A DNA stretch of 64,000 nucleotides, from contig JAUVNS010000018.1 in the NCBI GenBank assembly GCA_030599585.1, forward strand, positions 25,253 to 89,252, given 5' to 3'. The first letter of the stretch is position 1. Each line of letters begins with the position of its first letter. The DNA comes from Promethearchaeota archaeon. GTDB taxonomy: Archaea; Asgardarchaeota; Lokiarchaeia; Sigyniarchaeales; SOKP01. Positions 25,829 through 44,377 of the stretch are shown piece after piece. Position numbers and translations under genes: made by a program. The notes beneath the pieces were generated by a model. The model was not told the origin of the DNA. It worked only from the letters and a program-made list of their open reading frames with translations, and did no database searches.

Positions 25829-26902
25829 TTAAGAACAATCTAACTTGTTGTTTTCCAGTGCTAAGACTTTTAGCGATTTCATTTCTTTTATAGATTTCGG
25901 TAATCTAGTTAGATGGTTATTATTTAATGCTAGAACTTCTAAGTTCTTTAACTTTTTTATTGATTCAGGAATACATGTAAGCTTGTTTATGCTTAGCCCT
26001 AGTCGCTTAAGGTTAAATAATTCCGTTACGATCTCAGGGAAGATTTTAAAATTGTTGACGCCTAAATAAAGTAATTCGAGAGATTTTAAAGAAGATATTT
26101 CGCGAGGAAGAGTTTCCAACTGGTTACCGCTTAGGTTTAACTCTCGAAGGTTTTTTAGCTGCCCAATCTCTTTTGGGACATACAAAAATACATTCTCGTC
26201 TAAATAGAGCTTCCTTAAAGATGTTAATCTTGTTATTTCTAAAGGAAAACGTGTTAAATGGCAATGCCTTAACTCCAATCCAATTAACTTATTTTTTTCA
26301 AATTCAATCGCAAATTGCGGATTGCCGTATTGGTTATCGAACCATAATTCTTCTTCGATTTTTACTTCAGCTTTGGAAAGTATTTGCAATTTATTTAAAA
26401 TTAAGACTTCCTCATTTTCTAAAAATGTTTCAATTAACTTTTCTTTTACATATTTTCTTACATAACCATTTCCAATTAGATATCGGACAATAATTGGATG
26501 ACCGCTTTCAAACCTTTTTACGATTTCTTCTTCAAATACTGCTTTTGCTACTTGATCTCCAACGTCAGTTAAAGCCTTTAACATAGGAAACGCTAAAGTT
26601 CTATGCAATAGTCGCGTATCGTAATTAAACTCGTACCACGCTTGAAGGTTAGAACAGTGTGCCCAAAACTCTTCTTCTGGTAGTATTTCAAATTCTTCTA
26701 AAGCTCTTTCTTCTAACGATTGATCCAATAGTCTTTCTGCCTCGTCAATAGACATAATATCTTCAAAATTTTCAATATTATTCTCGTCTATATAAATTAA
26801 TAGAAATTTACAGTGTCTAAACAGTTTGTCTTTTATATAAATATTGGTCTTACCGTTTTCTAGTCGTAATTTTAAAAATTCATTTATTTGAAATTCTTTC
26901 AT
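25829..26902 (-). CDS. 'HCSNLQAW'-domain protein with C-terminal leucine-rich repeats
   Basis: N-terminal LKLRLENGKTNIYI...CKFLL...EEEFWAHCSNLQAW...RLLHRTLAFPMLKAL domain; about six 23-aa LRRs (LxxLxLxxNxLxxLPxxIxxL). Confidence 0.9.
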   Translation of the reverse strand: MKEFQINEFLKLRLENGKTNIYIKDKLFRHCKFLLIYIDENNIENFEDIMSIDEAERLLDQSLEERALEEFEILPEEEFWAHCSNLQAWYEFNYDTRLLHRTLAFPMLKALTDVGDQVAKAVFEEEIVKRFESGHPIIVRYLIGNGYVRKYVKEKLIETFLENEEVLILNKLQILSKAEVKIEEELWFDNQYGNPQFAIEFEKNKLIGLELRHCHLTRFPLEITRLTSLRKLYLDENVFLYVPKEIGQLKNLRELNLSGNQLETLPREISSLKSLELLYLGVNNFKIFPEIVTELFNLKRLGLSINKLTCIPESIKKLKNLEVLALNNNHLTRLPKSIKEMKSLKVLALENNKLDCS

Positions 26903-27703: not shown

Positions 27704-29083
27704 CTATTTCTTAATATTTCGGAAGTCAGGAATTATTTTTTGTAATCTATCAATTAACTTTTCAAGTTCGACAAAATCGCTATTAAAGCTATCTAATTCT
27801 GAAATTAAATTATCGAAATTGGTAGTAATGGTTATTTCAAAGGGATGATTGATAGCACTTATTCCTTTTAACATGTCGATAGAGAGACTTTCTATTAGAT
27901 TCGTTAAATTTGAGATTTGGTTTCCTGATGATTCAATTTTCTCTCTTGTGTTTGTATCTAATTTGGTTAATTCGTATAGTTTATTGATGGATTCATCGAG
28001 ATTATTTTTTATAGAATTAGCGATATCACTGATACTACGCTCTAAAGACTCATTAATTTCACTTTTTAAGATTTCACTGATCTCTTGTGTATTCGATTTT
28101 AATTCTTCTTGCCCCTCAAGACGTTTTCTTATGTATCCCTCAACTTTTTCCTTATATTCATCTATCCTTTCTTTAAATTTTAGATCAATCCATTGTTCTA
28201 CTTTTTCGAAACCACTATTAATCGCAGAATCCATTTCTGAAAGGGAGTCATTTATTTTATGAAGACCTATTAAAGCTCCATCATTAAAATCTGTAGACCA
28301 TAATTCTAATTCAGATTTGTAATTGGTTAAGACTAAGCTAGATAAATTCTGTAGTCCTTTTTTAAACCCGTCTATAACCGGATTAATGTTAGGGTATTTT
28401 ATGTCGATTTTCGTATCAGTTTGACCTATTGATGTTGGAATTTCTTGAAGATCACCTGGAATTCCTTCAATCATCTCAAATTTCTCGGGTATTATATTTG
28501 GATCCTTCGCTTGACCATATTCCACAAGCTCTCGAACCCAATTGAAGAAATCTAGGGATTTTGGTGGCTCGATTTCGTTTTTTACTCTAACTATTCCACT
28601 TTTTTCTCCTAATTTGTGATTTTTTAATTGGAATACTTCTAATCCTAAATGATCGGCTTTTTTAAGTTGAGAGGGATCAAATACAATTCCAAATGCTAAG
28701 GGGTTCTGTTCATTTTGAAAATATAAATGGTTCTTTTTATCAACATCTGAAAAGAAAAATGAATCGCTGTTAGGGTGTGAATGATACCAACCCACAACGG
28801 AATAGGTCTCCTCTTTAACTTCTTCTTTTAGCTGCTCAAGTGATTTATGAATCTTTTCTGAAAATCCTAATTCAACTTGGTCTCCGTGCGTAATAGGAAT
28901 GGCTTTGATCACGTCAATGTCATCGCTGTCAGGTTTTTTGATACCCAAACAAAATCCTATAACCTGTTCATTATCAAACATAACGTTTGCAAATCGTAAC
29001 GCATGAGTAAGAATATCTTTATACACACTCATTCGTATGAACACTTTACCATTTTCTCTGGTTTCAACTGTGCTCTCATTCAT
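27704..29083 (-). CDS. MPN/JAB (Mov34) domain protein with long C-terminal coiled coil
   Basis: VVGWYHSHPNSDSFFFSDVD JAMM-type motif, NEQVIGFCLG, AFGIVFDP; ~230-aa heptad-rich tail. Confidence 0.88.
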   Translation of the reverse strand: MNESTVETRENGKVFIRMSVYKDILTHALRFANVMFDNEQVIGFCLGIKKPDSDDIDVIKAIPITHGDQVELGFSEKIHKSLEQLKEEVKEETYSVVGWYHSHPNSDSFFFSDVDKKNHLYFQNEQNPLAFGIVFDPSQLKKADHLGLEVFQLKNHKLGEKSGIVRVKNEIEPPKSLDFFNWVRELVEYGQAKDPNIIPEKFEMIEGIPGDLQEIPTSIGQTDTKIDIKYPNINPVIDGFKKGLQNLSSLVLTNYKSELELWSTDFNDGALIGLHKINDSLSEMDSAINSGFEKVEQWIDLKFKERIDEYKEKVEGYIRKRLEGQEELKSNTQEISEILKSEINESLERSISDIANSIKNNLDESINKLYELTKLDTNTREKIESSGNQISNLTNLIESLSIDMLKGISAINHPFEITITTNFDNLISELDSFNSDFVELEKLIDRLQKIIPDFRNIKK

Positions 29084-29085
29084 CT

Positions 29086-30540
29086 CTATTCATTACCTCC
29101 TTGTTCGAGTTCTTTGATTTTTAATAGTAATTCTTTTTTTTCAGATTCCAATTTTTCAATTTTTTCAAAGATAGGTGCTTTTGTTCCTTCTAAAATTAAA
29201 ACTGCAGCTTTTAAGTTTGTCACAAACTTTTGAGAATTTTTTTGTAGGTCGCTAATTGAATTTTTCATTAAACCATACTTCTTCGAAGTAATATCTGAAG
29301 TTTCTTTTTGCATATTTTTTATCTTGTCGAGTGTCGAATCTTTTATCGAGGCTATTTTATCCGATAATGTATTTAATGAATTCTCTAATATTTCGAGATT
29401 CTCGAGATTTTTAGTTAAATTCCCATTGAGGTTCATTATTTTACTGTTCCATTCGTCGTAATCTTTTGAGAAATCATTTTTCAATGCTTCAAATTTCTCT
29501 TTAAAAGAAATTTTTAGTTTCTCTTGAACAAATTCCTTTATCTCTCTCAAGATTTTTCCTATTTCGTCATGGTATTCATCGATTTGGTCTAAAAAGTCGT
29601 CAACATAGCCTTCTGCGCTAAATAATTCAGAATTTAAATCGTCCTTGTATTTCCTCTGGATTTTATTAATTCCAGCGTTCACTAAATTTTTTAATTGAGA
29701 TAAATTATTCCTCATTTCGATGTTGTTATTCTCAATTTCTCCTGAAATGTTTTTAGCTATCGAATTTAAATAGGAAATTAAGGGTGATAAAGATAAATCT
29801 ACAAAGTTAGCAAGACCAATTTGAACGGATTCAATAATTTTTTGTTGATCTATTTCAGGTTGCTTAAACCTTAATTGACTCAATTCAGGGACTTGAACAT
29901 CGCCAAAAATATCCGCTGTTTCGTTTTCTTCCATAATCGGGGGTTTATTTGTATACACACCATTAATCAGTTCTACAAGCTTAAAATAATAATCCACATC
30001 ATTAGGTGGTTCAACAATTGCTTTCACTTCGTGAACATTCGAACTCCTAATGTCTGTAGGATTCGTTAATCTAAGTGCTCTAAATCCCGGGTCATCAGAG
30101 CTTTCCAAATATGCGTGGTCAAAAACTAGTGCTATACCACTTGGATTCAATTCATTTTGCCAGCCGAATTGATTTTTTACATCCGTAGGAGAAAAGAATA
30201 TTTTGTGCTGGAAAAGATTAGGATGACTATGATACCATCCTACCATAAACCAGTTTTTTTCTAAATACATCGAATTAGCTTTTTCAAAGAAAATATAATC
30301 ATTTATTGAAAATTCGACTTCTACACTACTTCCGTGAGAGATAGGTACGGAATCTTCAATTACGACGTTTTTAAACTTCTTATCTTCGCCCTCTTCGTGA
30401 TGTCCAATGAGTACTCCCATCACTTCGATACACTGATTATGATTTCTCGCTTTGTTCCCAAAGCGTAATACGTGTAGCACCATTTTGTAATAAGCAAGTG
30501 GTTTTATCTTTACAACACTACTATCTACATCTTTTCCCAA
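29086..30540 (-). CDS. MPN+/JAMM metalloprotease-like protein with long C-terminal coiled coil
   Basis: CIEVMGVLIG (catalytic Glu as in Rpn11 EVMG), VGWYHSHP...FSPTD, ALVFD; coiled-coil tail; 2-nt gap to its paralog. Confidence 0.9.
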   Translation of the reverse strand: MGKDVDSSVVKIKPLAYYKMVLHVLRFGNKARNHNQCIEVMGVLIGHHEEGEDKKFKNVVIEDSVPISHGSSVEVEFSINDYIFFEKANSMYLEKNWFMVGWYHSHPNLFQHKIFFSPTDVKNQFGWQNELNPSGIALVFDHAYLESSDDPGFRALRLTNPTDIRSSNVHEVKAIVEPPNDVDYYFKLVELINGVYTNKPPIMEENETADIFGDVQVPELSQLRFKQPEIDQQKIIESVQIGLANFVDLSLSPLISYLNSIAKNISGEIENNNIEMRNNLSQLKNLVNAGINKIQRKYKDDLNSELFSAEGYVDDFLDQIDEYHDEIGKILREIKEFVQEKLKISFKEKFEALKNDFSKDYDEWNSKIMNLNGNLTKNLENLEILENSLNTLSDKIASIKDSTLDKIKNMQKETSDITSKKYGLMKNSISDLQKNSQKFVTNLKAAVLILEGTKAPIFEKIEKLESEKKELLLKIKELEQGGNE

Positions 30541-30787: not shown

Positions 30788-31465
30788 TTAATGGGGTAGT
30801 GGTTTCCCGCAATAAGGACAGAATTTCCAGCCAATATCTTTCCCACAACTAGGACAAAAAGTGGAAGTCCCGGTACTAGGGCTATCAGGTGAGGTAGGAC
30901 CTCCGCCCGCTCCTTTTGGGATTGAAGGTAAACTTCTTGCAGTTTTTAGAGTCGATGGTTCTTGTTGACCCTCCTTGGCTTTTTTTTCCTCCTTAATATA
31001 CTTCATTCTCTCTTGAAATGCCTGGCGTTTTTCGTCTTCTAATTCTTGATTTGATTTCATACCCTCTTCTTTTACCCATCCCGTAGCTGCTGGTCTCTTT
31101 ATTTCGCTTTCTGGAACTTTATCTAATTCAACTTCTTTAGCTTCAGAAATCGGAGCTGCAACTTTTTTTTCTTCGCTCCTGGTAATAGCTTGCTTAGTTA
31201 ATGCGTGCACAGTCTTCATAATTTGGTGAGGATTTATATTAGGAATTGCTACTGTTCTCAGCACCCATCCAACCATGATATTTTGGTTAGGAAAACCAGA
31301 AGCGCTCATATCTTCCTCTTTGAAAACATAGGAATCAATAATATCATTTCTGCCTTTCAGTAAACGGATGGCCCATTTATCGTTTATAAGTCCTAATTGA
31401 ATTCTATACGAAGTTCCAGAAATTCCTAGTTGACTACTAAGAGGTTCGAATCCTTTTTCTGAAAT
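30788..31465 (-). CDS. Hypothetical protein with C-terminal zinc ribbon; probable ATT start upstream of the track ATG
   Basis: Frame stays open 52 codons upstream of 31309 (SEKGFEPLSSQLGISGTSYRIQLGLINDKWAIRLLKG...), preceded by GCTGGTG (RBS-like); C-terminal CPSC...CPYC. Confidence 0.75.
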   Translation of the reverse strand: MSEKGFEPLSSQLGISGTSYRIQLGLINDKWAIRLLKGRNDIIDSYVFKEEDMSASGFPNQNIMVGWVLRTVAIPNINPHQIMKTVHALTKQAITRSEEKKVAAPISEAKEVELDKVPESEIKRPAATGWVKEEGMKSNQELEDEKRQAFQERMKYIKEEKKAKEGQQEPSTLKTARSLPSIPKGAGGGPTSPDSPSTGTSTFCPSCGKDIGWKFCPYCGKPLPH

Positions 31466-31810: not shown

Positions 31811-32611
31811 TCACTTATAATAACCAGATATCTTAAACAAAAAACTGCTTTCCCCTAATCTGTGCTTATATACTTTAAAAATTTCATGGACTTTATTTTT
31901 AAAATACTCATTCTTATTATAATATAATTTATCAATGAGAATAGTCGTCCAATAACTAATATCAAGGTATTTCTTATTAAATGAATCTCCAAACAAGACC
32001 AATAGATCGAATAACCTTATTTTTGGGTGTTCTATGAGAAAAAAAATATCATCATCACAAAGATCGTATTTCTCTCTATCATATGTTAAAATTTCATCCA
32101 GAACGGATTCATTAATTTCTTTATCTAATAAATTTTCTTTAATGGTTTCAAGCAACAATGAAATTTGTTCATAATTTAAAAACGAAAAATATTGGTTAAA
32201 CACCAAAAAAATAATAACTGAAATGTTTTGAGTCTCTTCAACCTTTTTAAAAATCTCTTCTCTAAATACCTTTCTTGCCGTTTTATCCCCCAAAAGCATT
32301 AAATCCTTCAGTAAAGGAAAGGCTAGAGAGTAATGAAGTAACCGAGAATCATATCCACTTTCGACCCACGCTTGAAGATTCGAACAATGCCCCCAAAACT
32401 CATCACGGGCGGAGATATAAAAACGAGAATCTTGCACAATTTCCCCTAAACTCTCGATATAGTCAAGATTATCTAAGGTTTTGATCTGATCTGAAGATAA
32501 ATTTATAACTAACTTCTTGCACTGTGAAAAAAGAACATTGTTCAAGTAAATATTAGTTCTTTTGTTTTCTAACCGTAAAGAAATTAATTTATTTATCTTA
32601 TATTCATCCAT
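31811..32611 (-). CDS. 'HCSNLQAW'-domain protein with helical tail; candidate immunity protein
   Basis: ISLRLENKRTNIYL...CKKLV...DEFWGHCSNLQAW...RLLHYSLAFPLLKDL, paralogous to 25829-26902; begins 32 nt downstream of the GIY-YIG ORF on the same strand. Confidence 0.85.
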   Translation of the reverse strand: MDEYKINKLISLRLENKRTNIYLNNVLFSQCKKLVINLSSDQIKTLDNLDYIESLGEIVQDSRFYISARDEFWGHCSNLQAWVESGYDSRLLHYSLAFPLLKDLMLLGDKTARKVFREEIFKKVEETQNISVIIFLVFNQYFSFLNYEQISLLLETIKENLLDKEINESVLDEILTYDREKYDLCDDDIFFLIEHPKIRLFDLLVLFGDSFNKKYLDISYWTTILIDKLYYNKNEYFKNKVHEIFKVYKHRLGESSFLFKISGYYK

Positions 32612-32643: not shown

Positions 32644-35600
32644 TTAAAGATTTAGATTGTTTGATAATGCTAAAGCTCGCAATCTATTAAAATTATACCC
32701 TAAAGTACGAAGTAAACATTTATCTGAAAGCTTCTTGATTGTCGACTCAGAATAACCTAAACCTCCCAATGCAACTAACAAAGAATATGCATTATATTCA
32801 TATGGAGAACTTCTTATTAATGATAATGCCAATGTTAAATAATAATGCTTATCTGGTCGGGAAGAGACCAATGCCTTAAAAGTCTCACGATCTTCTTCGA
32901 ACCTAGTTGGCAGAATATTTTCAATAATTAAATCCTTTAATTCAGTAAAAGTTAATCCTCTAAATCTCGTCTTAATAACACCACTATAATCCCTTCTAAG
33001 GGATAAATCACTATACTCCTCTCCAAATCCTAGCTTAATGAGGAAGTCATAGCAAGTGATAGAATACCCTTCTTTTCTAAGAATGTCAACAGCTCTTCCC
33101 CAGTAAATAGAATCAGGATAATATCTATCATTAAGTTCATTGAGAGAAATACCTTGTCTAACATTGAATTTTGTCAAAGTTTTAACATCTGTAAACCCCG
33201 GAAGAATTGGAAGCAGATCTCGATTGTGGACTCTATGGTTAATACTAGATATAAATCTTTCAACTCGTGCTTTAATAACCAAACCTCTATAATCTCCAAT
33301 GTGAGCTAATGGGATATCAATTTCAAATTCTTCTTCTACTTTCTCCTTTAATAGTTGAGAGACTAATTTTTTATTTATTCCAGACAAACCTGGATCGATC
33401 TTTTTTGCTGAAAGGTCTAAAATTCTCACTATCTCGTATAATTGGTATCCTTTCTCAAAGTAGTTATAGATTAGCTCTTTTTGATAACCTCTTAGTATTT
33501 TCTTAAATGTCTTCTGTTCTGGGTATTGTTCTTCTAAGTTTCGATCCAGTAAAGTGCGTGAAAATTTTGACTTGAACGATTCTTGAACTAACTCTATGTA
33601 TAATTGCTTTCCAAAGGCTAAACAAGCAATCTTTTTAAAATTATTATGTAAGTCTATAAATGGAATTATGGTACCTGATTTAGATCCAATCCTTCCTCCC
33701 ATATGGATGTTGGCACCAAATTCTTGGTATTGCGAATGAAACAAACCTATCCAAGCTATCTCAGCAAAATCAGCTAATTCACGAGTTCTTGCTTCAGCTA
33801 TTCTAAGTGCCTCTTTACGTTCCACACTATCAACAATTCTATTAATCTCGTTCATGTCCCCTTGAAAAGTAATAACTTGCAGTATCTCAAATCTAAACAC
33901 CTTTTTAGCTTCTTCAATGTTCTCAGTATATTCACTAATTAGCTGCTCAATATAAGAACGTGGATTCGTAAAAGCCCGTTCTAAGTGTTCCTCGTATCTT
34001 AGTATTGGAGAAACTCTTCCAGTCTCCCCAACATACATCAGATCTGGAAAAGGAATGAAATCTGAACCTTGTGTATCTGTAAGTTTCTTATTGTACTTAT
34101 TCCAATAGATTCTATAAATATATCTTGTGCCTGCGGAATAATCTTCGTGCAAATTCCGAATGGCTTTCATCTTCTTTAGCAATATTGTATTTTCTAAATT
34201 ATGATCAATTATATGCCCACAATGCTTACATTTGTAACGAATGGTATCTTTGTCATTAATCAATCGAACTAAAGACTTAGTCTTACCTTCAAACTCGAAA
34301 TTGTGTCTTACGAATTGTTTATGTTCTTTGTTATCATATCTACAAGCTCCTATCTCAGCATAGTAATGGCTTACTCTCTTTGATGGTTGTTTTAAAAGAC
34401 TTGACGGTTTTGTACGAACCATTCCAAACATCGACAACCCGGAAAATGTTAATCCACAGAAGAAACCGAGCGGACCTAAAGAAAGCGTAAGGAAAGTCGT
34501 CATAGTTCCAAAAGTTGCTATCCCAACGCCAATCCCAAGATTTTTAACGATAAATTCTTTAGTGTTTTGGATACCATCTCCAACTTTTCCAGCAATTCCA
34601 GAGATAGCAACTTTAACGGGGTTAAATATTTTGCTAAACACTTTTTTAACCGAAATATCTTCAGTGAGACAATACGTTGCAATCGTTGTAAATGCTAGAG
34701 CGCCAAAAGGTCCGAGGAGGAACGAGGCAGCAAAACCTGTTGCCAACGAGACAAAACTAAGAATTTTGTTTGCCCCTCTAAGGATCGCCATTTGGCTTTC
34801 TTTAGCCGTTTGCTGAGAGTCGAAATTGCTAGAGTAATCGTTAAATTCGTTAATAAATTCTTGAATCGTCGGTCTCTTATCTTTAGAGAAGTAATTCGTA
34901 TCGAGAATTTCTGATAACGACTGCTGTTGAGTCTGTTCAGAGCTAAACATTGTCGAAAGCGGTCCGCTGATCGCCTCTCTACCGCTCTCTGCGATGGAAC
35001 TAAGGACCATCTGCATGATAGCGTCTCCGCCTGCTCGTCGCACTAATCCCGAGACCGTGCTTTCGATCCAAGGGTCTAAAAGGAGTTCTTGTCCCATTTC
35101 CTTCGTCACGGCTCCGATAACGGTAGCAACGCTAAAACTCTTAGCCGCACCTAAAAACGTCTCCAATAACCTTCCAAGCACTTTGCTCGATACTTCGCTC
35201 GCTGAGTCTTTAAGAGAATTTACGATGGATCCCATACCAGCAGAAAAGCCCATAGTGAGCGCGGTAGAAATCGCGGTAACTATTGCCGTGTAAATTAATT
35301 CGTGGAATCCCATCTGAGTTTGTGTTGCAAGGTTAAATTGGTAGTTGTATTCGAGGATGGCAGCTTCGATGGCTTGAGCAGTCGCAATTTTATTTACTTG
35401 CTCTGAAGTGAGGTCTCGAACGTCCGAGATCGAGCGGTATTTCTCCACTTTTATCTCGAAAAGTATTTTTGGTTGAGAAACTGAATAAGTTAATTTATCT
35501 TCGTCTAATTCTTCTTCTTTTGTAGCGTACGAATTTAGTATGGTAGAAAGCGTTTGAACCGAACCAATAGTAATAATTCCAGTGCTCAAATCGACATCAA

Positions 35601-36708
35601 ATTCTCCATTTTCTAAAGTGACCAGATGGGAGTTAGCGGTTTGCGTACCAGCCCCGAATGTATTGGGCGTCACGCTCCAAACCACGTAGGCGTCGATCGA
35701 TACGATATCCGCTTGGAGGTTTGATTCCGTGTCAAATAGCTGGATTTCGATGGAAGTAATTTCTTCGGGATTTTCAATTTCCATTATCTTGTAAATAGAA
35801 CCGTATTGGTCCGCTGCCGAGGAGTCGTCCGATACAAAAACGGGATACTCGGTGTAAAATTCAGGAGCGGGGATTCCGCCCATGGAATCGATAAAGCTAT
35901 ACCTTGGAGCAAACCTATCGCGTTCGGAGTCGTAGTCTATTGTAGGGATGATGGTGTCGAGGTATGTGTCTCTGTTATCTGCCGTATCTTCTTGGATCTG
36001 GTTCTCTATGTAATACACGGAACTCTTTGCGTGGTTAAATTCGGGAATTCCAATATTGTCCACAAGCGGGTTAATTGCTCCAGTCGATTGGAGGTATCCT
36101 ACAACGAGATAGTCGTCAAAATCGGAGTATCCCGCCAAGTTCCGAGTGGATAGCCAATAATCTAATTTTGGATACGAGTAAGATGTTGTAAGCGAGGACG
36201 CTTTAGATTCTTCGAAATTAAACTCTCGAACGATAATATCGGCGCTATAGGAAAATTCTTTTGTGTCTCCATACACGGGGGCGTACACTCCACCAAACGA
36301 ACCAAATATAGTTATTGGCATAACATCTCCGTACATGTCGTCGAACCAGAACTTATCTCCTAACACTTTCTCGCCAGAAGAACCGTCTAAGCGGAAAGTT
36401 CGGTGAGCAAAGTAATTCTCTTGTTCTAGAATTTTTGCTGTTTGGAAAAGAATTGACACTCCAAGATATCCTAACATAAAACCGAATGGTCCTTTATCTA
36501 AGAGAGCAGAGCCCAACAATCCTGCTGTTGTCGCAAGGAATTGTTGGAATACGTCTAACACTAGAGTACCTAAATCGGTCTGCTCTTCGAACTGATTTGT
36601 CGCCATCTCTTCTGCCATCTCGATCAGATCGCTGCTTTCTTGCGTAAACACCATTTTACTTATGTCAAAAAGCACGTCGCTAAAGGTAGGCTCGTTAAAC
36701 GTTCCCAC
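32644..36708 (-). CDS. Orphan C-terminal cassette of a giant protein: conserved hydrophobic trunk plus GIY-YIG nuclease tip
   Basis: First ~760 aa are colinear with giant aa ~6160-6930. Then CKHC, GIY-YIG motifs YIY-x-YVGET...R-YEEH...E-IAWI...GANIHMGG (~33690-34125), and helical repeats. Weak GTG start with an in-frame stop 11 codons upstream. Confidence 0.85.
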   Translation of the reverse strand: MGTFNEPTFSDVLFDISKMVFTQESSDLIEMAEEMATNQFEEQTDLGTLVLDVFQQFLATTAGLLGSALLDKGPFGFMLGYLGVSILFQTAKILEQENYFAHRTFRLDGSSGEKVLGDKFWFDDMYGDVMPITIFGSFGGVYAPVYGDTKEFSYSADIIVREFNFEESKASSLTTSYSYPKLDYWLSTRNLAGYSDFDDYLVVGYLQSTGAINPLVDNIGIPEFNHAKSSVYYIENQIQEDTADNRDTYLDTIIPTIDYDSERDRFAPRYSFIDSMGGIPAPEFYTEYPVFVSDDSSAADQYGSIYKIMEIENPEEITSIEIQLFDTESNLQADIVSIDAYVVWSVTPNTFGAGTQTANSHLVTLENGEFDVDLSTGIITIGSVQTLSTILNSYATKEEELDEDKLTYSVSQPKILFEIKVEKYRSISDVRDLTSEQVNKIATAQAIEAAILEYNYQFNLATQTQMGFHELIYTAIVTAISTALTMGFSAGMGSIVNSLKDSASEVSSKVLGRLLETFLGAAKSFSVATVIGAVTKEMGQELLLDPWIESTVSGLVRRAGGDAIMQMVLSSIAESGREAISGPLSTMFSSEQTQQQSLSEILDTNYFSKDKRPTIQEFINEFNDYSSNFDSQQTAKESQMAILRGANKILSFVSLATGFAASFLLGPFGALAFTTIATYCLTEDISVKKVFSKIFNPVKVAISGIAGKVGDGIQNTKEFIVKNLGIGVGIATFGTMTTFLTLSLGPLGFFCGLTFSGLSMFGMVRTKPSSLLKQPSKRVSHYYAEIGACRYDNKEHKQFVRHNFEFEGKTKSLVRLINDKDTIRYKCKHCGHIIDHNLENTILLKKMKAIRNLHEDYSAGTRYIYRIYWNKYNKKLTDTQGSDFIPFPDLMYVGETGRVSPILRYEEHLERAFTNPRSYIEQLISEYTENIEEAKKVFRFEILQVITFQGDMNEINRIVDSVERKEALRIAEARTRELADFAEIAWIGLFHSQYQEFGANIHMGGRIGSKSGTIIPFIDLHNNFKKIACLAFGKQLYIELVQESFKSKFSRTLLDRNLEEQYPEQKTFKKILRGYQKELIYNYFEKGYQLYEIVRILDLSAKKIDPGLSGINKKLVSQLLKEKVEEEFEIDIPLAHIGDYRGLVIKARVERFISSINHRVHNRDLLPILPGFTDVKTLTKFNVRQGISLNELNDRYYPDSIYWGRAVDILRKEGYSITCYDFLIKLGFGEEYSDLSLRRDYSGVIKTRFRGLTFTELKDLIIENILPTRFEEDRETFKALVSSRPDKHYYLTLALSLIRSSPYEYNAYSLLVALGGLGYSESTIKKLSDKCLLRTLGYNFNRLRALALSNNLNL

Positions 36709-36733
36709 TTCTTTATCAGTTTCTCTAAAGTGA

Positions 36734-37840
36734 ATGTCTTATGAAGATCGTTTTCGGTTTTTGATCCCAATGTATTTCGGTAAGAATACCGATGGTTTTA
36801 TTCTCCTTCTTGATATATCAATGATACCTGCTTACAAAAAGGCAATTTATTGGTTGTCTATAATTAAGAAAAAAAATATAAACAAACCTGTTTTACTAAT
36901 ATTATTTTCGTTAAATGAAGAAAATGTCCACTCTCATTTACTAAATGAATTAAGCCGTGAACAAAATGTAATACTTATTAAAAATCCAATAAAAACTGAA
37001 TTAGATATTCTTAATATTTTAAAATATCTTTCTTGTATAATATTTGACTTCCAAATTCCTGATTCTATTCTTGCCAGACTTGACATAATATCAGATAATT
37101 ATACAAATAAAGCTTTTAAAATCTCTAATGAAGAAGTAACTCAATTAGAAGAAGGACCTATATCTATGACAAATTTCCATTTTATTTACAAAGAACTCTT
37201 AACTAACATTAAAGAAATAATTCAAGAGCCAACTGTTAATAAACTCCTGCCTCAATTTGAGCAATTAGAACAGCATATTGAAAAACAAGAAATGCGAGTC
37301 AATTCTATGAAAGGTAAATTACTAGAAATGAATGTACGCTTACTCTATGAGAGAGAATATGGTTACGAAATGGATTTTACTGGAAAAAATTTTATGTGCG
37401 AAGAGAATGAAATTGAAGTTCTATACGATAACAAATGTATAAAAAAACATAGCACAAAAGATATAGAAATTGATGTATTTGGAAAAAAAATCAAAAATGT
37501 AAATGATCTCACATACTTAATTGGGGAATGTAAAGATAGAAGAAAAAAAATTACTTTGAAAGAAATAAAATGCTTTATTATTAAAGCGGTTATTATCGCT
37601 AAGTTCTATTTATATACTCATAGCAGAGAGAAGATGTCTATACCAAAATTTCATTTATTAATCGTTTCTTACCATGGATTTCCTGAAAAAACAATAATAT
37701 ATGAAATACTTAACAAATATTGGAAGCCTAATCTATCGAAAAAGCGGTTAATTAATGAAAATATTGACCTACTAGAAGAAAAGAAATTTATTCATTTACT
37801 GAAAAAAAATAATATTTCTATTAAAGAATATAGTAATTAG
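36734..37840 (+). CDS. N-truncated degenerate small-GTPase-like domain, coiled coil and PD-(D/E)XK restriction-endonuclease-like domain
   Basis: EDRFRFLIPMYF...DGFILLLDIS...W...KPVLLI resembles the Rab/Ras switch II-to-beta5 region with no P-loop; IEIDVFG...YLIGECK is a PD-(D/E)XK signature. Confidence 0.7.
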   Translation: MSYEDRFRFLIPMYFGKNTDGFILLLDISMIPAYKKAIYWLSIIKKKNINKPVLLILFSLNEENVHSHLLNELSREQNVILIKNPIKTELDILNILKYLSCIIFDFQIPDSILARLDIISDNYTNKAFKISNEEVTQLEEGPISMTNFHFIYKELLTNIKEIIQEPTVNKLLPQFEQLEQHIEKQEMRVNSMKGKLLEMNVRLLYEREYGYEMDFTGKNFMCEENEIEVLYDNKCIKKHSTKDIEIDVFGKKIKNVNDLTYLIGECKDRRKKITLKEIKCFIIKAVIIAKFYLYTHSREKMSIPKFHLLIVSYHGFPEKTIIYEILNKYWKPNLSKKRLINENIDLLEEKKFIHLLKKNNISIKEYSN

Positions 37841-39421: not shown

Positions 39422-42400
39422 GTGAGAATTATGTCCCGTGAAAAAATTTTACCTTTACTAATTATATTAATGATTTTAACATCAAGTTTTAACTTACTAG
39501 AGCTGGATTATATTAAAAAAGATAATAGTGAAAAAAGAGACGAAGATATTGTTGAAAAACCCCAAATCTCACCCTGGATCTGGACACCTGATGCGGATAT
39601 AACAATTACTATATATGAAGCCACTGATGAAAAATTAAAATTTACTTATTCTGCAAATTTAGATCTGACAGGTTTAGTTGAATATTGGGGTCACGGTATC
39701 TATCGTATTGATGTATATATATACGCTACTTATGGAGGGGTTGAAATATTTGATGTCTTTAGTAATGATTTTGCATATGGATCATTTTTATTAGGCGAAA
39801 CTTTAGAAGTTGATCGTATTAAAGGTATTTCACTAGGTCATCTCTTAGATTTAGGTTATGAAAATATTAGAATTAGAGTTCATGTTCATAGACAATTAAA
39901 CTTCATAGTTATTCCTGTTTGGGATTCAAATTATATAGATACATACATAGATTTAACAGACGACGATATAAAAGCCCCAAAATTTCAATATGCAAATTAC
40001 GACTTATCTAAAATTATGCAATCGATTGGGCCCTATGAAATTACATTTGAATATAGAGATGATCATCCATGGGAAGGTGAAATCGAGTGTGAATTTAGAG
40101 ATTTAGCCACCAACAATTTAAGGGGAACATATAATACGATAGATAAACTCCAACCTAATGATGAAAATATTTGTAACTTTCAAATCCCCAAATCAACTTG
40201 GTTTCTGTATCCAGATTCAAGAATTGTTTTTAGAACTCGAGCTATTGATAAAGATATGGATGGTGGTAGAACTCACGACCGTGAGCAGTCAGAATGGGAA
40301 GATTGGCAAAATGCTAATAAAATTTTATCGAGAGTGGGAGGAAGCATTGATAGTGTTCAAGCCTACGCATACATAGACGGTTGGAAACTGGTTTCTTTAT
40401 CACCTACTTCTTCTAATACACACTTTCAATCCATATATTTATACGATAATAATTACTTTACGATTTCTATCTTGAATCCCGCTGGAGAGAATTTGATTAT
40501 TCTGAAGGCGAGTATAAACTTCACTTGTCCTTTATTTGATCAACCTTTTCGATATTATTTTCCCATAGATGTAAACAAACCTATTCAGCCTGGTGAGATT
40601 TTTTCAAATTCAGTAAGAGTTAAATTTGATCCAGATGATTTAGATATGGGAAATTGGGATTCACCTACAATGAAACTAAATTTTTCGTTTCAATTTTCAA
40701 TGGAATCGAATCCAAGTGTTGTAACATCTTATAAAGAAATAGCTGAATTTCAAATCATAAAAGCACCTGAACCAACCTTTAAATTCATTGGATTTAAAAC
40801 TCCATTTGATGAATCCATAGAAGGAGAGAGATTCACATATAAAACTAGAAAAACATCAACCAGTATTTACTCGACATTTGAGATATGCAACAATGCTAGA
40901 ATACCTATTAACATCTCACAAGATTTTGATTTCATCTCTGGTACTAATGAATATGAAATAAGCAAGATAAGAGAGATCGAAGATTATATCAAGCAGAAAA
41001 GGGTAAATTCTTTTGAAACACATCAATTAACTTTCTTGATACGACCTGATACAATTTTCTTTACAGATGAAGATTTATGGTTATCATTCATATTTCAAAC
41101 ATTTGCTCTTCCAGTACCAAAATGGATCAAAAGAATTTTAGATACTTCAATTAAAGCTAAAGATTTAACAAAAGAGGTTCTTAAAGCTAAGCTTCTTAAA
41201 TATCAAAAATGGGCCGGAGTATTTATAGACTCTTTTTTAGCATTATATAATGGGTTTATTTTGGAAGGTTCTATAACCTCGATGGATGCTGAGAGGAATT
41301 TCTCATTTAAATCATTATGCGATTGGAGTTATATTCACATGGATCGTGAAGTCAAGGAAATTTCAATTCCAAATGAAAATTTATACTACTCGCAAATAAT
41401 TGAGAGCACCGATGAATTAAAACTAAAGCCATCAAGAGCCCAGGAGGGTTTACATTTAGAAGGTATTAGTTTTAGATATTTTGCAGTATCTTATTACGCT
41501 GTTGCAGCAGCAGCATATTATGCAGGTAATCCCGCTGCTGGATTAGCATTTGCTTTATTAGCAGATCTTAATGCTTTAATTAGTAACATTAGATGGAGAG
41601 GAGCAAATGATGATCCTCTCAAACCATTGTATTATGAAGAACTTTATAAACCAAATTATACTACACCTAAGATCCCCAATTTCGTTCCAAAAAATGAATA
41701 TGAACAACTACTCTTAAATAATATCGGCTTAAATATTCGGTTTATTGAACATTTACGAGCTATAAATGAAACAGAATTAAAAATTGAAGCTGCTCTAAAA
41801 TCAGGAGATTATAATGCAACTATAAAGCAAAAAAGAGCTCTAATTAATTTTACCATATTAATAAAAGATGATTTCAAAAAATTATCAAATAGCTTCCAGC
41901 TGCAGAAACATTTTCTAGAAAAATTTTTTGAAGTAACTAATAAATCATTAACAGAAATAGAATCAATTATAGCCCAAAACGGTCTTCCGCAAGAAGAGAT
42001 TGAAAGGATGAGACAAATTGGTTTTAACGAGACTGAAATAGATATTCTAAACCGAACATCAATCGAATACGCAAAAAGAGGAGAATTTTCGGGTAACTTT
42101 TCAAATAGTGTTAACAATATACATCCTTTCATTGATATGGCTGGTATTGAAATAGTTAGAGAAATTGGACAGCTTGAAAACTATACTCACAGGCTAATTA
42201 ACGACACAATACATTTGCAGATAACGAAACAAAATCAGAGTATACAAACAGAAGATGGAGAAATTCTTTTCCTCATAGAATCCTTAAAAGGAGAAATATT
42301 AGATTATAATGCATCAAAAAGATGGCATAAAGTTATAGAAGCTTCGGATGATCTTATAAAAATTGTAGAAAAAGCAGCTTTAGAGATGAATAATCATACA

Positions 42401-44377
42401 TATATCGAGGAATATATTTTATTTTCCCAAAAAATTAGAGATGAAGCTAAGAGTTATATCAATATTAATATATTTCACCTTGAGCGACTAACTCTCAGAG
42501 AAAATGAGGATATCCAAATCAATATCATCGCTGAAGCCCATGGTTTACATTCCGAAACATATCAATTAATTACTAATTCTTCTTGGGTTCAGCCTTCTCA
42601 AGGTTTCATTGAAATTCTCGATGATCAGAGAACAATCATAAGCTTGAATATAAACACATCAAATATAGAAAATCTAAAATGTCGGAATTATGATGTAAAC
42701 TTCCAGCTGAGAAATGTAGAATATGAGATATATGTTGATTCTAAATTTATTGTATCCGTAGTTGATGATGATTCATCTCCCCCAAATATTGTGGTAAATT
42801 ATACAGGTGATTACACAGATGGTAATAGTGGTCTATGGAAAATTAACATAACTGATGAAGAATCCGGAATTGAAGAGATTCAAATATATTTTGAGGGAGA
42901 AAAATTAATCCATCTCCAAGATCTTCAAGGAATTCCCACAAAGTACTTTGAAATTCCCCTTCCTAACGAACTTGGTCTGCATAAGATCGATGTTTTTGCT
43001 ACTAATTGGGATACCGACAGAGCAAATGATGAGGAGTCTGTTTTAAAAAATTACTCCTTAAATATTTTGGATGATGATACCAATTCTCCAGTGATCTCAA
43101 TTTCTTATATTGGAGGAAACATAGACGAACGTCCAGGGTATTTTGAATGGAATATTATTGATATAGATAACGGAATAGGAGGAGATAATGATGTTGGATT
43201 CAGTCAGTTAAATATTACAGTCGATTATTCATCAATAGAAGGATTAGAGGATTATACGCTAATGCTTCCAAGTAGTTCAAGCGGATTATGGAACCTTCCA
43301 CCATCACTAGGGGAATATACATTATCTATTTTTGCCACTGATAACGATAACGATCGCGCATTAATGTTAGACTTCCTATCCTCAGAAATTGGCATGAGTC
43401 AAAATATATATGACGATGATATTAACCAACCTGAAGTGTCTAATCTGGTAATTGTACCCGATATTTTTAATATTAATATATCATTTTCTGCGTTTGATAA
43501 CGATAGTGGAATAGGAAATATTAAGATTTTCGTTAATAAAGAACTCATCGAGCCCATTTCTTCGGGGCAATTAAACAATAGTTTCAATTTTGTCTTAAAG
43601 AATCGGTGGGCATCTATAAGAGGATTATCAGATGTAGAAGTTATTGTAGGCGATAATGATTATGATAGACCATTTGATTCTTTAAGCGCTGTTTTGTACG
43701 GTTCTTTTAAAAATACTTTATTTCAAATGTATGATTACATCGATTGGCAAATGCGAGAACTAATCAAATATATCGAAGATAATATGAATCAATGCTTAAG
43801 TAATCAATTTAACGTCAAACTCCAGTTGGCGCAAAATTTTATTCAAAAAGCATACAATTACACAGAAAACGGAGATTTAACAAGAAATTTAGATTATATT
43901 ATAAAAGCAAAGTATATCATCGGATTTTTAATATGTAAAATTAAAATGTATCAGTGTTGTGGTTGGATTACTGACGAAATCGCCACAATCCTTATTTATG
44001 AATTATTTATGATTAAGGAAAATATGATTATTTTAATGGGAACATCCACAGGAAAAGCTGAAGGATATGAATTTGGATACATTGAAGTAGATTTGATTAA
44101 GCTAAGCAAACTCGTTAGAAGTAGCGTAAAGCATTGCTTTGGGGTATATTTAGCTTTTAAACTTAAAACTGCGGCTCAAATCATTGAAAATTCTTTATTT
44201 AGAATAACGGAAGGTAAATGTTACTCAATTTTGTTAAATTGTGTTCTCTATAAATTATCTTCAGTCGAAAAAAAAATAAATTACCTTTTAATTAAGCAAA
44301 GGATAAAAGTGGAATTAGCTGATCTTATTCTCGAGAACATAAACCGTATTTCTAATTTACTTGAAGACTTTAAATAA
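39422..44377 (+). CDS. Large secreted/surface protein (1,651 aa) with Ig-like 'DDD' repeats
   Basis: N-terminal hydrophobic signal (KILPLLIILMILTSSF); four [IV]xDDDxxxP modules each with a DxDxDR-like loop; central hydrophobic Ala-rich segment; Cys-containing helical C-terminus. Confidence 0.85.
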   Translation: MRIMSREKILPLLIILMILTSSFNLLELDYIKKDNSEKRDEDIVEKPQISPWIWTPDADITITIYEATDEKLKFTYSANLDLTGLVEYWGHGIYRIDVYIYATYGGVEIFDVFSNDFAYGSFLLGETLEVDRIKGISLGHLLDLGYENIRIRVHVHRQLNFIVIPVWDSNYIDTYIDLTDDDIKAPKFQYANYDLSKIMQSIGPYEITFEYRDDHPWEGEIECEFRDLATNNLRGTYNTIDKLQPNDENICNFQIPKSTWFLYPDSRIVFRTRAIDKDMDGGRTHDREQSEWEDWQNANKILSRVGGSIDSVQAYAYIDGWKLVSLSPTSSNTHFQSIYLYDNNYFTISILNPAGENLIILKASINFTCPLFDQPFRYYFPIDVNKPIQPGEIFSNSVRVKFDPDDLDMGNWDSPTMKLNFSFQFSMESNPSVVTSYKEIAEFQIIKAPEPTFKFIGFKTPFDESIEGERFTYKTRKTSTSIYSTFEICNNARIPINISQDFDFISGTNEYEISKIREIEDYIKQKRVNSFETHQLTFLIRPDTIFFTDEDLWLSFIFQTFALPVPKWIKRILDTSIKAKDLTKEVLKAKLLKYQKWAGVFIDSFLALYNGFILEGSITSMDAERNFSFKSLCDWSYIHMDREVKEISIPNENLYYSQIIESTDELKLKPSRAQEGLHLEGISFRYFAVSYYAVAAAAYYAGNPAAGLAFALLADLNALISNIRWRGANDDPLKPLYYEELYKPNYTTPKIPNFVPKNEYEQLLLNNIGLNIRFIEHLRAINETELKIEAALKSGDYNATIKQKRALINFTILIKDDFKKLSNSFQLQKHFLEKFFEVTNKSLTEIESIIAQNGLPQEEIERMRQIGFNETEIDILNRTSIEYAKRGEFSGNFSNSVNNIHPFIDMAGIEIVREIGQLENYTHRLINDTIHLQITKQNQSIQTEDGEILFLIESLKGEILDYNASKRWHKVIEASDDLIKIVEKAALEMNNHTYIEEYILFSQKIRDEAKSYININIFHLERLTLRENEDIQINIIAEAHGLHSETYQLITNSSWVQPSQGFIEILDDQRTIISLNINTSNIENLKCRNYDVNFQLRNVEYEIYVDSKFIVSVVDDDSSPPNIVVNYTGDYTDGNSGLWKINITDEESGIEEIQIYFEGEKLIHLQDLQGIPTKYFEIPLPNELGLHKIDVFATNWDTDRANDEESVLKNYSLNILDDDTNSPVISISYIGGNIDERPGYFEWNIIDIDNGIGGDNDVGFSQLNITVDYSSIEGLEDYTLMLPSSSSGLWNLPPSLGEYTLSIFATDNDNDRALMLDFLSSEIGMSQNIYDDDINQPEVSNLVIVPDIFNINISFSAFDNDSGIGNIKIFVNKELIEPISSGQLNNSFNFVLKNRWASIRGLSDVEVIVGDNDYDRPFDSLSAVLYGSFKNTLFQMYDYIDWQMRELIKYIEDNMNQCLSNQFNVKLQLAQNFIQKAYNYTENGDLTRNLDYIIKAKYIIGFLICKIKMYQCCGWITDEIATILIYELFMIKENMIILMGTSTGKAEGYEFGYIEVDLIKLSKLVRSSVKHCFGVYLAFKLKTAAQIIENSLFRITEGKCYSILLNCVLYKLSSVEKKINYLLIKQRIKVELADLILENINRISNLLEDFK

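Follow-up and report, generated by a model that had tools for sequence, protein, structure and literature searches.

What is a DNA nuclease doing behind membrane hairpins at the very end of an archaeal protein, and how did it come to be there? The question is raised by an open reading frame (ORF), here called P0001, in a 64,000-nucleotide stretch of DNA from a Promethearchaeota archaeon of the Lokiarchaeia (Sigyniarchaeales; assembly GCA_030599585.1). This stretch, hereafter the window, covers positions 25253-89252 of contig C23 (JAUVNS010000018.1) in a genome of 4.85 Mb, 52 contigs and a GC content of ~32%, whose SSU rRNA scores 1458 bits against the archaeal model. P0001 occupies positions 32644-36708 of the window on the reverse strand and encodes 1354 amino acids (aa), with the predicted nuclease in its C-terminal 590 residues; its start codon is GTG, while the gene caller on record begins the protein at Met19, giving 1336 aa. 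An earlier note, made from the letters of this DNA, had described the C-terminal part, the tip, as a separately acquired GIY-YIG nuclease acting as a DNase effector. We find that the tip very probably is a GIY-YIG nuclease, and that it sits behind a conserved module whose tips have very probably been swapped among close relatives.

The complete GIY-YIG motif set that the note had claimed could be located (YIYRI at 863-867, YVGET at 892-896, RYEEH at 904-908, AEIAWIG at 982-988 and GANIHMGG at 998-1005), is kept in relatives and is matched by the predicted fold. An exhaustive HMMER search for relatives of the tip returned 28, and over the 21 that were aligned R904 and E983 are invariant and conservation is at least 90% at Y892, G894, H908 and N1000, the family pattern being IYRI / Y-x-GQT / R-x3-H / E-x-FWIG / G-x-N-x3-GG. 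This conservation indicates that the motif set is a property of the family and not a product of chance. All elements of the GIY-YIG catalytic set are present, namely two Tyr, Arg plus His, a metal-binding Glu and a structural Asn. We take the tip's series of Tyr, Tyr, Arg-x3-His, Glu and Asn to correspond to Y6/Y17/R27/E75/N90 of I-TevI, an assignment that follows motif order. An AlphaFold model of aa 799-1029, with a predicted local distance difference test (pLDDT) score of 85-98 in its core, has the three-stranded sheet with flanking helices of the GIY-YIG alpha/beta fold, which was resolved through VIA-align, BFVD and ESM Atlas comparisons. Among 48,161 chains of solved structures, the best match was the I-TevI catalytic domain (1ln0_A; Z 8.0, root mean square deviation (rmsd) 2.2 Å, 89 of 92 residues aligned, 21% identity), and GIY-YIG enzymes accounted for 7 of the top 17 rows; further GIY-YIG matches in the same list were PD-T4-3, T4 EndoII, UvrC-N, R.Eco29kI, HIGLE and Slx1. 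The BFVD list was dominated by viral GIY-YIG intron and homing endonucleases, and the ESM Atlas list was headed by GIY-YIG/NUMOD clusters (TM-score 0.75 by matched cluster, rmsd 2.4 Å). Structure prediction, which the note had proposed as a check, thus returned a GIY-YIG fold with the I-TevI domain as its best solved match, and in all three sets the closest structural relatives are enzymes of homing-endonuclease type, in line with the homing-endonuclease origin that it had considered possible.

Sequence searches reached this family by a more indirect route. Pfam and NCBIfam searches with the entire P0001 and four pieces of it gave no GIY-YIG match, and PF01541 did not match P0001 even at an E-value of 10. 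One of the 21 relatives matches PF01541 at E 0.003, two related tips (L043 and L049) attain its cut-off, and a transitive link is provided by the profile of the tip family (alignment A2), which matches the tips of L041 (4.9e-11) and L043 (3.9e-6). When alignments A1, A2 and A3 were used as profiles against PDB sequences, no GIY-YIG entries came up, only a designed 'CAP repeat' and weak RcsB-type helix-turn-helix (HTH) matches for the tail; comparing A2 by hhalign with the I-TevI sequence of a T4-like phage gave only an insignificant zinc-finger match. Foldseek against the PDB yielded helical-repeat noise for a 565-aa model, and for the 231-aa model placed I-TevI only at E 3, with a TM-score of 0.67 by target. 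Judging by motifs and model, we hold with high confidence that the tip has the nuclease fold, and regard it as a GIY-YIG DNA nuclease of homing-endonuclease type whose catalytic set is apparently intact. Proteins with this zinc knuckle, GIY-YIG domain and HTH units form a family of 28 representatives without a Pfam model, which makes up a new and very divergent branch of the modular GIY-YIG enzymes; enzymes of that class have already been used for genome engineering.

Around the catalytic domain, the other parts described by the note were likewise recovered. The knuckle-like segment with CKHC (827-830) ahead of the GIY-YIG domain belongs to a conserved C789...H802...C827-x2-C830 set, a probable zinc knuckle. 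The two similar helical units are the last two of the tail (about aa 1198-1267 and 1285-1352; 30% identity over 70 aa, E 4e-6); the tail is all-helical in the model and matched HTH-type repeats weakly. Hydrophobic segments do precede the tip, at aa 471-489, 648-681 and 724-764, and the knuckle/GIY-YIG/HTH-like tip begins 8 residues past the last of them. The parts of this region, all on the reverse strand, are:

34417..34539, (-): hydrophobic hairpin 2, aa 724-764, a sequence peculiar to this tip
34159..34395, (-): Cys/His knuckle subdomain, aa 772-850, with C789, H802, C827 and C830
33691..34131, (-): GIY-YIG catalytic domain, aa 860-1006, with Y865, Y892, R904, H908, E983 and N1000
32647..33621, (-): helical tail, aa 1030-1354, with helix-turn-helix-like units

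The remainder of P0001 is not peculiar to it. From aa 1 to ~705 the protein matches the end of a 14,552-aa ORF on contig C47 of the same genome, at 71% protein and 78% DNA identity, but it closes with ~580 aa that bear no relation to the P0001 tip; 'it' here being the C47 ORF. A second comparison comes from P0030, encoded on a metagenome contig (L066, ERZ25746247 NODE_4833), which has the same Met19 start and a LAGLIDADG tip. Its module is 83% identical to that of P0001 overall and ~95% identical over aa 19-580; identity falls from aa ~580 and is gone past aa ~760. At the DNA level, homology to L066 is confined to window positions 36699-34625 and the genes differ on both flanks, indicating that module plus tip form a separate unit that occurs in different genomic settings. 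In both comparisons, with the C47 (71%) and the P0030 (83%) modules, closely related proteins pass abruptly into unrelated C-terminal domains, and hairpin 2 falls past the end of DNA homology to other modules. The same picture extends to 20 extracted module genes, whose tips measure at least 460 aa and, in all but one, at most 705 aa, and are mostly unrelated to each other by BLASTP; no tip-less gene was found among the 22 module-bearing genes examined, all of which have tips of at least 460 aa. GIY-YIG tips occur in P0001, L041, L043 and L049, LAGLIDADG tips in L040 (9.5e-11), its relative L055 and P0030. To judge from these alignments, cassette exchange is very probable, with tips having been replaced abruptly and recently between near-identical modules. 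The short forms P0030 and P0001 have a ratio of nonsynonymous to synonymous substitutions (dN/dS) of 0.14 over aa 19-580 (dS 0.32), and the short-form module is under purifying selection. Our literature search found no published description of a GIY-YIG tip behind a membrane-hairpin module that ends giant proteins.

Two side observations concern individual tips. In L043 (4200-4949, reverse strand; contig C71 of genome G104) a ubiquitin-family domain (Pfam E 7.9e-7) stands directly ahead of the GIY-YIG domain and terminates in ...QTGA, without Gly-Gly. In genome G125, copies on contigs C10 (L040) and C26 gave an identical E-value.

Within P0001 the module comprises the following elements:

32644..36708, (-): whole ORF P0001, 1354 aa, a short trunk-less form consisting of module and tip
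36709..36741, (-): ten in-frame codons ahead of the GTG that match the giant paralogue (IHFRE[ST]DKE), with a stop codon at 36739-36741
34625..36699, (-): conserved module block, DNA identity 87% to L066 and 78% to the 3' end of the C47 giant, GC content at third codon positions (GC3) 0.44
35299..36708, (-): the module's N-domain (aa 1-470), acidic with a net charge of -50
35242..35298, (-): first hydrophobic segment, aa 471-489
34666..34767, (-): hairpin 1 (aa 648-681), long and hydrophobic, with GP at its centre

By these alignments the 5' boundary of the module block lies in the region 36709..36741, which is also where short forms start in other genera (L026, L029). No family was recognised for the acidic N-domain, a protein-atlas search of which gave no usable match. 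Among the 161 genomes of the class, 25 have the module; the frames that carry it range from about 350 to 14,552 aa, and stop codons or contig ends interrupt some of these. The module, ~700 aa long, also ends giant frames of 9,130-11,376 aa in relatives, the paralogous giants that carry it at their end measuring 9,000-14,500 aa. The genome under study (G000) has three ORFs of 13,858-14,552 aa:

window 2-25750, (+): giant ORF 1, which fills the start of the window
C47:27053-70708, (-): giant ORF 2, 14,552 aa, with the module-bearing end
C24:357280-398853, (-): giant ORF 3, among the three of 13,858-14,552 aa

Each consists of an N-terminal cluster of transmembrane segments, an acidic body of ~11,000-13,000 aa rich in Ser, Thr and Asn, and hydrophobic segments near the C-terminal end, which in two of the three resembles the module weakly. 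Pfam recognised no family in the module, in a 5,000-aa sample of giant body or in the giant C-termini.

The earlier note had also placed a compositional break at ~34400, and a switch indeed lies between about 34625 and 34395. The module (aa 1-705) has a GC content of 0.435, GC3 of 0.441 and a CpG observed/expected ratio of 1.34, against 0.332, 0.255 and 0.64 for the tip (aa 771-1354), and the break in GC3 and CpG at their junction exceeds a mere effect of amino-acid content. ORFs across the genome have a mean GC3 of 0.272 (5-95% range 0.206-0.360) and a CpG ratio of 0.94, and giant gene bodies have 0.37-0.39 and about 1.45. The AT-rich, CpG-poor tip therefore matches the genome background, and its composition fails to mark it as foreign; since the C47 copy has the same step, it is the trunk that is the outlier, while the tip looks native. 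We accordingly rejected the AT-rich tip as the compositionally foreign part, its GC3 (0.255) being close to that of the genome (0.272) and that of the trunk (0.441) deviating. The note's view that the tip was acquired separately is supported by the comparisons with the paralogue, with P0030 and with free-standing genes, but not by composition. A GC-richer core with an AT-richer tip is the classic pattern of Rhs elements.

Where might such a tip come from? The tip family (A2) is present in 10 of the 161 genomes, with one locus per genome, and outside P0001, P0017 and the distant L041 its members are soluble proteins of 438-755 aa, one of which has a single hydrophobic stretch and none of which has the module. 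These free-standing copies, found also in genomes of the same genus, are surrounded by ordinary chromosomal genes, and homology to them starts at aa ~772 with the pattern K-P-x-x-x-V-x-H-Y-Y. No intron or intein context was seen for the nuclease, which is fused to the module in P0001 and free-standing elsewhere. A full-architecture homologue, P0017, is encoded on record LAZR01001223 of assembly GCA_000987305.1, which we take to be the Loki's Castle sediment metagenome. With the JAB/MPN and LRR genes in the neighbourhood of P0001, and with relatives that all belong to one class, this homologue makes a Loki-type Asgard origin of the genome likely. The closest relative of the tip, P0003 (L007:45-3173, forward strand; 52% identity), was considered as another fusion to the module and rejected: this copy is free-standing, is missing both the zinc knuckle and the initial GIY strand, and comes after a separate 457-aa Cys-rich ORF, so that it may be a split or decaying free-standing copy.

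Tips also tend to be followed by closely spaced genes. A same-strand ORF lies within ~180 nucleotides of the stop codon at 16 of 21 loci, and these ORFs belong to several families. For P0001 it is:

31811..32611, (-): downstream gene, 266 aa, 32 nucleotides past the P0001 stop codon

The 148-aa N-domain of its product is 43% identical (E 1e-32) to that of a leucine-rich repeat (LRR) gene at 25829-26902 (reverse strand), which abuts the stop codon of the giant in the window; the tails of the two proteins differ, being helical and LRR, respectively. The N-domain family has 11 copies in the genome, is found just downstream of tips in L042, L049 and L053, in convergent orientation in L056 and L057, and also adjoins the free-standing GIY-YIG relative P0005 (L063). 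A further linked pair is seen in L040 and P0030, whose tips are 27% identical and whose downstream proteins of ~150 aa, beginning MEVI...DIYFDL, are 73% identical. The 266-aa protein is a candidate partner or protector of the tip; a complex prediction of the two scored 0.00, which, made without controls, is no evidence either way.

Further downstream on the same strand lie two adjacent, co-oriented JAB/MPN genes (27704-29083 and 29086-30540, both reverse strand; Pfam E 4.5e-11 and 1.5e-13), whose proteins have long C-terminal regions, and between them and the nuclease gene is a 173-aa zinc-ribbon gene (30788-31309). On the other side, a divergent 368-aa gene (36734-37840, forward strand), without significant Pfam or PADLOC match, is 25 nucleotides from the P0001 GTG, and a 1651-aa ORF at 39422-44377 (forward strand) has no Pfam family. 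PADLOC returned nothing for tip or module, and JAB and coiled-coil noise alone for neighbouring genes; Rfam, tRNA and repeat scans of the window gave nothing relevant.

What purpose could interchangeable nuclease tips serve? By analogy, we give about even odds to a polymorphic effector system resembling those of the Rhs and contact-dependent inhibition (CDI) type, of which P0001 would be a short, trunk-less form. The tip would have been captured from a free-standing gene of homing-endonuclease type by recombination near codons 580-770, the swapped unit bringing its own hairpin along; its HTH units would bind DNA, which the GIY-YIG domain would nick or cut by a one-metal mechanism. The arrangement would work like that of Rhs and CDI systems, in which the trunk is conserved and richer in GC, the tips are variable and richer in AT, and trunk-less cassettes occur as well; the downstream gene would supply a partner or protector. 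Extended to the group as a whole, the proposal becomes more tentative: Loki-type Asgard archaea would own a polymorphic effector system with trunk and delivery parts unrelated to those of bacterial Rhs/CDI, in which giant, double-anchored surface proteins and short forms carry, on a terminal module of hydrophobic hairpins, interchangeable and largely homing-endonuclease-derived tips of at least 460 aa, each with a linked gene.

Several observations weigh against this reading. The 15 aa past the last hairpin have a net charge of +5, compared to -50 for the N-domain; we infer that this charge distribution would put the tip on the cytoplasmic side, which is awkward for a simple outward-facing warhead, and with the N-terminal transmembrane cluster of the giants it would leave both of their ends inside the cell. 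P0001 itself lacks a signal peptide ahead of its acidic N-domain of 470 aa. At 460 aa and more the tips are large, and their build is that of homing endonucleases that read a sequence; to our knowledge LAGLIDADG domains are not among the known tips of polymorphic toxins. If homologous exchange were frequent, P0001 and its paralogue in the same genome should be more alike than their 78% nucleotide identity. P0017, which has the same tip family, is followed by an unrelated DUF3800 gene, so that a tip-matched protector is not evident for the GIY-YIG type. Nor did Pfam find any of the known trunk, secretion or pre-toxin domains (RHS/YD, FHA, PAAR, LXG, HINT, VENN) in the module, the giant body sample or the giant C-termini.

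Considering the kinship of the tips, one can ask whether they serve anything but themselves. GIY-YIG and LAGLIDADG genes might home into the 3' ends of module genes as in-frame fusions that promote their own spread, much like the free-standing or intron ORFs that became fused to host genes in fungal mitochondria. That two homing-endonuclease families, each with extra DNA-binding units, occupy one position would fit this, as would the structural kinship with phage and viral intron or homing endonucleases carrying NUMOD modules, the patchy distribution (10 of 161 genomes, one locus each), the free-standing copies among ordinary chromosomal genes, and the reach of the swap tract into the module, which resembles a co-conversion tract. 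We nevertheless consider such selfish capture unlikely: an 'empty' module gene is missing from the 22 examined, Pfam and profile searches recognise no nuclease in most tips, no displaced 3' remnant follows P0001, the next gene starting 32 nucleotides past its stop codon, and each tip brings its own hydrophobic hairpin. The nuclease might instead act inside the producing cell, staying in the cytoplasm, anchored to the membrane, as a defence or suicide effector or as the signal output of a giant surface protein, perhaps released by proteolysis. The positive-inside rule places the tip in the cytoplasm, the giants have transmembrane clusters at both ends of their acidic body of ~11,000-13,000 aa, a ubiquitin-like domain directly precedes the GIY-YIG domain in the tip of L043, and the two co-oriented genes of JAB/MPN protease type lie 2-5 kb downstream. 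This, too, we judge improbable, at a level comparable to selfish capture. For neither the tip nor its neighbours does PADLOC identify a relative in a defence system, and tips as extremely polymorphic as these, with variable genes linked downstream, are found more typically where cells are in conflict with one another; moreover, the ubiquitin-like domain does not end in Gly-Gly, and the topology is read from hydropathy and charge alone.

Least probable, in our estimate, is that P0001 does nothing at all, being the decapitated 3' fragment of a former giant gene. Homology to the giant does extend upstream to the stop codon 10 codons ahead of the GTG, the divergent gene 25 nucleotides away leaves little room for a promoter, and a signal peptide is lacking. 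All 1354 codons are intact, however, dN/dS between the two short forms is 0.14, and the same 5' boundary recurs in L066, in a different context and with an upstream spacer of ~200 nucleotides, as well as in further genera (L026 and L029). The locus offers a testable handle, with a defined module boundary, named catalytic residues, near-identical modules bearing GIY-YIG or LAGLIDADG tips, and linked candidate partners. If tips pass between cells, as the effector reading would have it, the lineage closest to eukaryotes would possess a system for conflict or kin recognition; if they are selfish, they would define a new niche for homing endonucleases, in-frame at the ends of membrane proteins.

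Compared with known systems, the giants resemble other Asgard giant genes, including the Aloposon elements of Heimdallarchaeum: multi-thousand-residue ORFs of atypical composition, several copies per genome and truncated copies among them (Wu et al. 2022, PMC8813620). Little is understood of the biology of these genes, and that account, as far as it was searched, describes neither a conserved C-terminal hairpin module nor variable nuclease tips (PMC8813620). The tip itself shares its catalytic fold with I-TevI and related GIY-YIG homing endonucleases of phages or introns (1ln0; PF01541 with NUMOD1, NUMOD3 or I-TevI_DNA-bd), along with the modular combination of nuclease, zinc element and helix-turn-helix units, a patchy distribution and free-standing relatives. 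Unlike I-TevI, however, its sequence is too distant for Pfam, PDB profile search or hhalign, 26 residues are inserted between its two Tyr strands and a large helical segment ahead of its Glu helix, its zinc element is N-terminal rather than in the linker, and it has at least four helical units and about 580 aa, compared to 245 aa for I-TevI; it is also fused behind membrane hairpins, with no intron, intein or evident homing site. Polymorphic toxin systems are rare in archaea, and URI/GIY-YIG toxin tips are known from those of bacteria (Zhang et al. 2012, PMC3482391). In contrast to the Rhs/CdiA systems with Tox-URI tips, the proteins described here lack RHS/YD, filamentous haemagglutinin, PAAR and HINT domains as well as known pre-toxin domains, their junction is a pair of hydrophobic hairpins, and their archaeal tips, LAGLIDADG among them, are 3-5 times larger; they are accompanied by no known immunity family, and for archaea no secretion route is known. 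What they share with the bacterial systems is a very large conserved protein with an abruptly variable C-terminal domain, nuclease tips, a GC-richer core with an AT-richer tip, trunk-less cassettes that retain a piece of the core, and a linked downstream gene.

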